A stretch of DNA of 53,998 bases, from the sequence record NC_079184.1, one strand, 5' to 3'. Numbering within the stretch: position 1 is the stretch's first letter; each line of letters starts with the position of its first letter. Positions 8,433 through 8,810 of the stretch are shown here, in pieces. This stretch comes from Escherichia phage vB_EcoM_DE15. The position numbers were made by a program, and so were the translations under genes. The notes beneath the pieces were generated by a model. That model ran no database searches. It was not told where the DNA came from and saw nothing but the letters and a program-made list of their open reading frames with translations.

Positions 8433-8810
8433 ATGGCACAATATTCAGATGTAAACACTGGCATTATCGGTCCTAACGGCTTCAAGAAAGACCCAAAACA
8501 TCCTGACATTCGTGGACGTATTAACGTTGACGGAATCTGGTATTGGGTATCTGGCTGGAATAAGCAAGCAAATGGTAATGAGTTTACCTCACTTGCATTG
8601 ACCATCATGACTCAGGAACAGGTTGATGAAATGATGCGTAAGCGTGAAGAGAAAGCTAAAGCCAAAGCTCAACCTCAAGCCGCTGCACAACAGCAACAGC
8701 AACGTCAGCAACCTTCTGCTGCACAGCAACAGCAAGCTCCTGCTCAACAACAGCAGGGTAATTACAATCCGAACGAGCCGAAAGGCTTCGACGACGACAT
8801 TCCATTCTAA
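8433..8810 (+). CDS. Small ssDNA-binding-like protein with bacterial SSB C-terminal tail (125 aa)
   Basis: The C-terminus FDDDIPF matches the E. coli SSB tail. A Q/A-rich linker follows a short N-terminal beta-rich domain. Confidence 0.6.
   Translation: MAQYSDVNTGIIGPNGFKKDPKHPDIRGRINVDGIWYWVSGWNKQANGNEFTSLALTIMTQEQVDEMMRKREEKAKAKAQPQAAAQQQQQRQQPSAAQQQQAPAQQQQGNYNPNEPKGFDDDIPF

Follow-up and report, generated by a model that had tools for sequence, protein, structure and literature searches.

The SSB-like gene and its surroundings

On the + strand of the window, by which is meant the whole 53,998-nucleotide stretch of Escherichia phage vB_EcoM_DE15 (NC_079184.1) that was analysed, there lies a small gene whose product of 125 amino acids (MAQYSDVNTGIIGPNGFKKDPKHPDIRGRINVDGIWYWVSGWNKQANGNEFTSLALTIMTQEQVDEMMRKREEKAKAKAQPQAAAQQQQQRQQPSAAQQQQAPAQQQQGNYNPNEPKGFDDDIPF) has the C-terminus ...NEPKGFDDDIPF. 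The gene, the parts of the protein it encodes and the neighbouring features are listed in Table 1.

Table 1. Positions of the SSB-like gene, its protein segments, its neighbours and the companion OB-fold gene in the window
Feature	Position	Strand	Basis or remark
Macro-domain protein, 146 aa	7866-8306	+	PF01661, E 1.5e-8; PHROG 335; adjoins the SSB-like gene on its 5' side
Phage-RNA-polymerase-type promoter motif AATTAGTTGGAT	8344-8355	+	some 80 bp ahead of the ATG at 8433
Shine-Dalgarno-like AAGAGAA	8418-8424	+	8 nt 5' of the ATG; from sequence
CDS, 125-aa SSB-like protein	8433-8810, including stop codon	+	ATG start; ORF list and sequence
Four-stranded beta domain, residues 8-58	8454-8606	+	AlphaFold2 (pLDDT about 90), conservation, profile search, Foldseek
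Amphipathic/basic helix QEQVDEMMRKREEKAKAKA, residues 61-79	8613-8669	+	AlphaFold2, alignment
Disordered Gln/Ala/Pro-rich linker, residues 80-117	8670-8783	+	pLDDT, composition, indels
Acidic tip GFDDDIPF, residues 118-125	8784-8807	+	matches bacterial SSB C-terminal tip
Cys/His-rich ORF, 39 aa (MKILCFIGLHNWEISHENDYVTFWVCRHCSAMREEYHGN)	8824-8943	+	directly 3' of the SSB-like gene; overlaps the start of the next gene
298-aa protein	8933-9829	+	only the C-terminal half conserved, as PHROG 20048 (unknown function)
Companion protein, 288 aa, PHROG 862 (unknown family)	23051-23917	+	between DNA polymerase and 5'-3' exonuclease

By megablast the window is closely related to Escherichia phages ST32 and vB_EcoM_SA91KD, with 96.7% identity over the region of the gene. 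Both are placed in the genus Carltongylesvirus of the Chaseviridae; these myoviruses, about 53 kb in size, encode an RNA polymerase of T7 type and, in a replication module that is likewise T7-like, a helicase/primase, DNA polymerase, 5'-3' exonuclease, endonuclease VII and ligase. The 8433-8810 gene stands outside that module, among early/middle genes and behind a promoter of its own. The motif assigned to this promoter, allowing for up to 2 mismatches, is found at 20 places in the window where 6.4 would be expected, and the homologous site in SA91KD is annotated as a phiEcoM-GJ1-type promoter directly upstream of the SA91KD SSB gene. The same Shine-Dalgarno-like sequence, AAGAGAAtcttaatcATG, has been given for ORF19 of ST32 (PMC6266442). 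A scan of positions 8200-9000 for generic sigma-70 promoters and intrinsic terminators found none; a hairpin at 8313-8334 has no T-run and is therefore not claimed as a terminator. Opposite-strand ORFs at 8411-8608, 8589-8750 and 8656-8805 were set aside, having neither homologues nor other support and overlapping the conserved gene on the + strand.

The slot immediately upstream, occupied here by the macro-domain gene, is variable: most relatives lose similarity upstream of about position 8306, and SA91KD has two small ORFs there instead. The macro-domain protein may be an ADP-ribose-removing counter-defence gene product, and an ArdA gene is found further along from the SSB-like gene. On the downstream side, the 39-aa ORF has no PHROG match; the gene at the corresponding position in SA91KD, gene 20, has been described as similar to phiEcoM-GJ1 gp16. 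The 298-aa protein encoded after it, for which a coiled coil is predicted in the SA91KD annotation, is apparently co-transcribed with the SSB-like gene.

A larger protein of ssDNA-binding type, which the sequence-only reading had also picked out, is indeed present within the replication module. An OB fold is confidently predicted for this 288-aa product, with the SSB-like protein PrgE of plasmid pCF10 as its best structural match; it ends in GGTGMPF, and its homologues conserve a C-terminal P[FYW], so that in its predicted fold and its terminal aromatic residue it agrees with that earlier suggestion. A weak NCBIfam match gives it the name "phage replication initiation protein, NGO0469 family". 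It is a candidate for the gp2.5 analogue of the Chaseviridae, and the presence of an OB-fold protein of gp2.5-like layout in the replication module means that the small protein may not be the replicative SSB in this phage.

Domain architecture and the origin of the SSB label

The AlphaFold2 model of the small protein, built on an alignment of 42 sequences, places beta strands at residues 8-14, 26-32, 35-46 and 49-58 and a helix at residues 61-79, with block pLDDT values of 87-92 over residues 11-60. Within the beta domain G10, N15, P24, G28, W36, W38, G41, W42, F51, S53 and L54 are invariant. The helix is present in the subfamily to which the window protein belongs and is absent, in the alignment, from many of the more distant family members. 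C-terminal of residue 79 the model has no predicted secondary structure. The linker that begins there consists to a large extent of Gln (17 of its 38 residues), with 7 Ala and 5 Pro, and is predicted to be disordered, its block-mean pLDDT being 39-54 over residues 81-120 and each of residues 92-113 falling below 50. The DNA encoding it is rich in CAG and CAA, with short tandem arrays at 8688-8703 and 8706-8755; its length varies among the orthologues, and nearly all of the indels in the alignment are confined to it.

The protein then ends in FDDDIPF, followed directly by the stop codon, so that the terminal Phe is free. Among the 42 aligned homologues D120, I123, P124 and F125 of the tip are invariant, while F119 and D122 are at least 90% conserved, and the mean fraction of sequences carrying the majority residue reaches 0.94 in the tip and 0.78 in the beta domain, against 0.56 in the linker. 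Many orthologues end in NEPPMDFDDDIPF, which is identical to the end of E. coli SSB. At 20^-6 per ORF, such a tip is not a chance ending. Compared with a canonical SSB (PF00436 / TIGR00621), then, the protein has the disordered linker of the Gly/Gln/Pro-rich kind and the DDDIPF tip, and does not have the N-terminal OB domain of about 110 amino acids. These are the features that had been proposed from the sequence alone: the ending shared with the E. coli SSB tail, the short N-terminal domain unlike a canonical OB fold, and the Gln/Ala-rich linker with its CAG/CAA-rich DNA have all been borne out, by translation of the ORF and the structure-database alignments given below, by the model, and by composition. 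The proposal had further been made to depend on conservation of the tip in orthologues, which turns out to be nearly invariant.

In some relatives the tip is not at the end. One of these, found in Logan run ERR4398821 (L014, 1840-2440), carries right after the IPF codons an HNH endonuclease gene of about 480 bp (CEICGN...HHDDY...CTKHHNEWH) which contains a frame-breaking A8 run; the insertion site corresponds to about 8805-8820 of the window. In this relative, and likewise in P0015 and P0017, the ORF gains 15 amino acids, APIGLQEGRRYLHCI, that mask the tip. An intron was considered as the cause of the C-terminal extension in P0015, P0017 and P0022, but Rfam finds none, and the alignment indicates insertion of a free-standing HNH gene. 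Since the tip is buried by the insertion in these relatives, a free tip may be dispensable in their genomes.

The N-terminal domain has proved much harder to place than the tail. A structure search with it returned no OB-fold match, no similar solved structure and no similarity to a known ssDNA-binding fold; its weak structural neighbours are RNA and ssDNA binders, along with protein-binding modules of the NTF2-like kind. Pfam gave low-complexity noise only, whether searched with the whole protein, with its N-terminal 80 amino acids or with the N-domains of 20 orthologues, and the sole match of the N-domain profile among PDB sequences, to a trypsin by way of "SGWG", was rejected as due to chance. 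Foldseek against predicted viral structures did find many small phage proteins at E values of 1e-5 to 1e-3, including an "SSB" of Vibrio phage JSF9, and aligned a phage DUF736 protein to the N-domain model with a probability of 0.99 (E 0.09).

Orthologues of the gene are called "single-stranded DNA-binding protein" in SA91KD (gene 19), ST32 (ORF19), flopper, phiEcoM-GJ1 (gp15) and others. In all, 58 homologues were collected; the contigs that carry them reach about 55 kb, and near-complete phage genomes of 51-55 kb are among them. The window protein matches PHROG 7364, "single strand DNA binding protein", at E 2.4e-41 (143 bits, residues 1-91 against positions 1-93 of the 158-position profile); that name is itself an inherited annotation. 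When a profile of the full family was searched against PDB sequences, it matched only SSB tails, over about 40 residues: 7f2n of Klebsiella (E 5e-5) and 1eqq of E. coli (E 7e-4). The NCBIfam SSB models similarly match only the C-terminal part of the protein, linker plus tip, and far below their cut-offs, and of E. coli SSB only residues 131-178 can be aligned to the window. As the SSB models match nothing but linker and tip, the database "SSB" label derives from the tail. A blastn search with the gene gave no match in any of 5,426 complete E. coli genomes and no prophage copy there, so the tail is no recent capture of the 3' end of the host ssb gene.

A large family of DUF736-like proteins with SSB tails

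A profile restricted to the N-terminal domain was searched against 1.84 billion representative proteins. It matched 2,214 clusters at E ≤ 1e-3, a count that may be slightly inflated near the threshold since one match proved false, and 135 clusters at E ≤ 1e-10; almost all of the proteins are 70-200 amino acids long. The false positive, P0182, is a protein of 1,158 amino acids with about 20 near-identical 52-aa repeats that was matched through a "WYSSW" motif, and it was removed before tips and tandem domains were counted in the best 147 of the 2,214 clusters. In 102 of those 147 the C-terminus is P[FYW], most commonly as DDDIPF, DDEIPF, DEDVPF or DDDLPF; a further 14 are acidic at the end with an aromatic last residue, and in another 7 the tip is internal and followed by an extension. 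The linkers, like those of SSBs, are rich in Pro, Gln, Ala and Gly. Two copies of the domain stand in tandem in 17 of the same 147 clusters, which suggests that the working unit is a pair of domains.

The relationship to DUF736 (PF05284) is indirect. The window protein itself has no match to this model even at E ≤ 10 and so does not reach its gathering score of 22.1 bits, whereas four tandem-domain relatives exceed it: P0221 (30.5 bits), P0226 (24.7), P0196 (23.1) and P0223 (22.6). Altogether 7 of 50 scanned family members match PF05284, the best with an E value of 3.5e-7. As its relatives pass and it does not, the window protein is to be taken as a distant superfamily relative, linked to DUF736 transitively, and not as a formal member. 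No function for DUF736 is described in the searchable literature.

The family members occupy positions where phages and plasmids normally keep their ssb gene. A two-domain protein lies directly upstream of DNA polymerase A and primase-polymerase genes, both in P0202 and in Vibrio phage QH; P0214 follows a UvrD-type helicase, P0208 follows ERF and YqaJ exonuclease genes, and the genes before P0216 encode a DUF3799 exonuclease and a 285-aa protein. P0222 belongs to a temperate element with repressor and integrase, in which it comes after SSAP_Sak and YqaJ. P0196 is found beside TraF-like peptidase and SLT genes, and its locus suggests a conjugative element; the neighbours of P0218 are uninformative.

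A tandem-domain DUF736 protein ending in DDDIPF is encoded at L018 1013-1558, beside genes for a TraF-like peptidase S26 and an SLT lytic transglycosylase. This locus suggests that SSB-like proteins may include the classical DUF736 proteins found in conjugative elements.

Members of the family have also been located in phages with Z-genomes, in which 2-aminoadenine is used. In Klebsiella phage K21lambda1 (L011, 4001-4336) and Salmonella phage PMBT28 (L013, 5001-5342) the gene is downstream of DNA polymerase I and beside PurZ, and the products end in SEPPMDFDDDIPF and NEPPMDFDDDIPF, respectively. In the Vibrio QH/VP5-like phage (L012, 5001-5477) it is upstream of DNA polymerase I with PurZ nearby, and the protein has two tandem domains and again ends in NEPPMDFDDDIPF. 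No canonical SSB was detected in the complete genome of PMBT28, where the sole similarity to E. coli SSB is the tail of the family member. Expressing the helicase and the "SSB" of PMBT28 together is reported to have greatly increased Z-base incorporation, an effect of the two proteins as a pair (bioRxiv 10.1101/2025.10.22.683976); the "SSB" of that work is presumably the DUF736-like family member.

Possible functions and relation to known systems

The reading that we favour, and consider rather probable, is that the 8433-8810 gene encodes a compact, non-OB, SSB-like protein that would bind ssDNA and recruit partners through a host-type tip. It draws on the conserved N-terminal domain, which in its very large family is almost always joined to an SSB-type tip, on the placement of the family in the "ssb slot" and on PMBT28, which together favour a real SSB-like role. 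The protein would follow the modular plan of a bacterial SSB, with the OB fold replaced by a DUF736-like beta domain of about 50 residues plus a helix. Transcription would start, in the early/middle region, at a phage-type promoter belonging to the gene itself, and the protein is accordingly expected to be abundant. Its oligomeric state, ssDNA binding and partner binding we infer as follows. The small domain would pair with a second copy, probably as a dimer, to judge from the tandem-domain relatives; the face of the paired beta sheet bearing the invariant W36, W38, W42 and F51 and the conserved R27, R29 and K44 would then bind ssDNA, and the Gln-rich linker would extend the FDDDIPF tip into the pockets of host SSB partners. 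The tip of E. coli SSB docks ExoI, RecQ, PriA, the chi subunit, RecJ, RecO, Ung and RNase HI. Phage ssDNA could in this way be linked to the host's genome-maintenance factors, or could compete for them.

A second possibility is that the tail is what matters: the N-terminal domain would only oligomerise or stabilise the protein, and abundant SSB-Ct tips would out-compete host SSB for chi, PriA, RecQ and ExoI, thereby shutting down host replication restart or protecting phage DNA ends, while the 23051-23917 product served as the true phage SSB. The presence of that OB-fold protein, with its terminal aromatic, inside the T7-like replication module would fit such a decoy, as would the position of the small gene outside the module, among early/middle genes with its own promoter, and the lack of detectable similarity between its N-terminal domain and known ssDNA-binding folds. 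We nevertheless regard it as improbable. The beta domain is highly conserved, with invariant aromatics of the surface type, and since tip and beta domain are both conserved, constraint acts on both ends of the protein, more than a pure tail decoy would call for. Proteins combining domain and tip occupy the ssb position beside SSAPs, exonucleases and polymerases, PMBT28 has no canonical SSB that could be detected, and the natural variants with a masked tip fit a tip-only function poorly. For the same reasons (the conserved N-terminal domain, the tip-bearing family in the "ssb slot", and PMBT28) the proposal of the sequence-only reading that the protein acts mainly as a mimic or titrator of the SSB tail is not supported in that form.

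About equally doubtful is an adaptor: the tail would tether SSB-interacting proteins of the host to whatever the DUF736-like domain binds, which could be dsDNA, RNA, or a protein of the phage replisome or recombination machinery. The fold is unassigned and its weak structural neighbours include the NTF2-like protein-binding modules as well as RNA/ssDNA binders, and the 288-aa OB protein could be the partner. Against this, the domain recurs in many unrelated types of module, with ERF, Sak, PolA, UvrD helicase or conjugation genes, and such a variety of neighbours points to a generic ligand such as ssDNA, not to one specific protein partner. It is very unlikely indeed that the protein serves chiefly as an immune factor, a trigger or decoy for defence systems responsive to phage SSBs or to SSB-bound ssDNA, for although phage SSBs are documented activators of Retron-Eco8 and DARNA, and the macro-domain gene and, further on, ArdA are among the neighbours, the published triggers (T7 gp2.5, T4 gp32 and T5 D11) are OB-fold SSBs, nothing links the family to any defence system, and its placement with replication and recombination genes is that of core DNA metabolism.

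A broader proposal, and one on which our confidence is evenly divided, would make the DUF736-like "mini-SSBs" a distinct, non-OB class of ssDNA-binding proteins, made of a beta domain of about 55 residues, as a dimer or in tandem, with the SSB linker and tip, and widespread in phages, those with Z-genomes included, and in conjugative elements; in the Chaseviridae the protein would then act as a host-factor arm beside the gp2.5-like OB protein. The gene and its "SSB" label are already known from GenBank. No study of a DUF736-like, tip-bearing family came up in the literature on DUF736, Chaseviridae SSB, SSB-Ct mimicry and non-OB phage SSBs, and it appears to be undescribed that this "SSB" is without an OB fold and belongs to a very large family combining a DUF736-like mini-domain with an SSB linker and tip. 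Should ssDNA be bound through a non-OB domain about half the usual size, this would mean that an essential function is served by a structure of a new kind, and it would add a new fold to the SSB repertoire and provide a first function for DUF736. It would account for a gene that occurs in thousands of phage lineages, among them the Z-genome phages of which synthetic biology makes use, could supply a minimal modular SSB for recombineering and the engineering of DNA replication, and would show whether SSB-sensing immune systems see non-OB SSBs. Without such ssDNA binding, on the other hand, the protein would be the first case of a natural SSB-tip decoy standing alone.

Bacterial replication, repair and recombination are organised around SSB tails as their hub, and host-like SSB tails are common on phage SSBs. 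With the bacterial SSBs (that of E. coli, PF00436 / TIGR00621, and the prophage and plasmid copies) the window protein shares the plan of a domain, a Gln/Pro/Gly-rich linker and a DFDDDIPF tip. To DUF736 (PF05284) its N-terminal domain is distantly related, and the window protein has in addition a helix, a long linker and the SSB tip. The beta-beta-beta-beta-alpha order of the model is that of the PUR-alpha and Whirly repeats, which pair into a unit that binds ssDNA or RNA, and this pairing is paralleled by the tandem-domain relatives. The T7 gp2.5-type proteins, including Enc34 ORF6 / DUF2815, are phage SSBs with a disordered, acidic, Phe-ending tail for protein contacts (PMC5686142). They differ from the 8433-8810 protein in having an OB fold and a tail that docks the phage's own polymerase and helicase and is not a copy of the host tip; their layout would be a better fit to the 23051-23917 product. 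In an engineered PriB-SSBc chimera (PMC8509808) the C-terminal module of SSB has reportedly been joined to another small ssDNA-binding domain; that construct is artificial and OB-based, whereas the 8433-8810 protein is a natural and widespread fusion of such a module with a non-OB domain.
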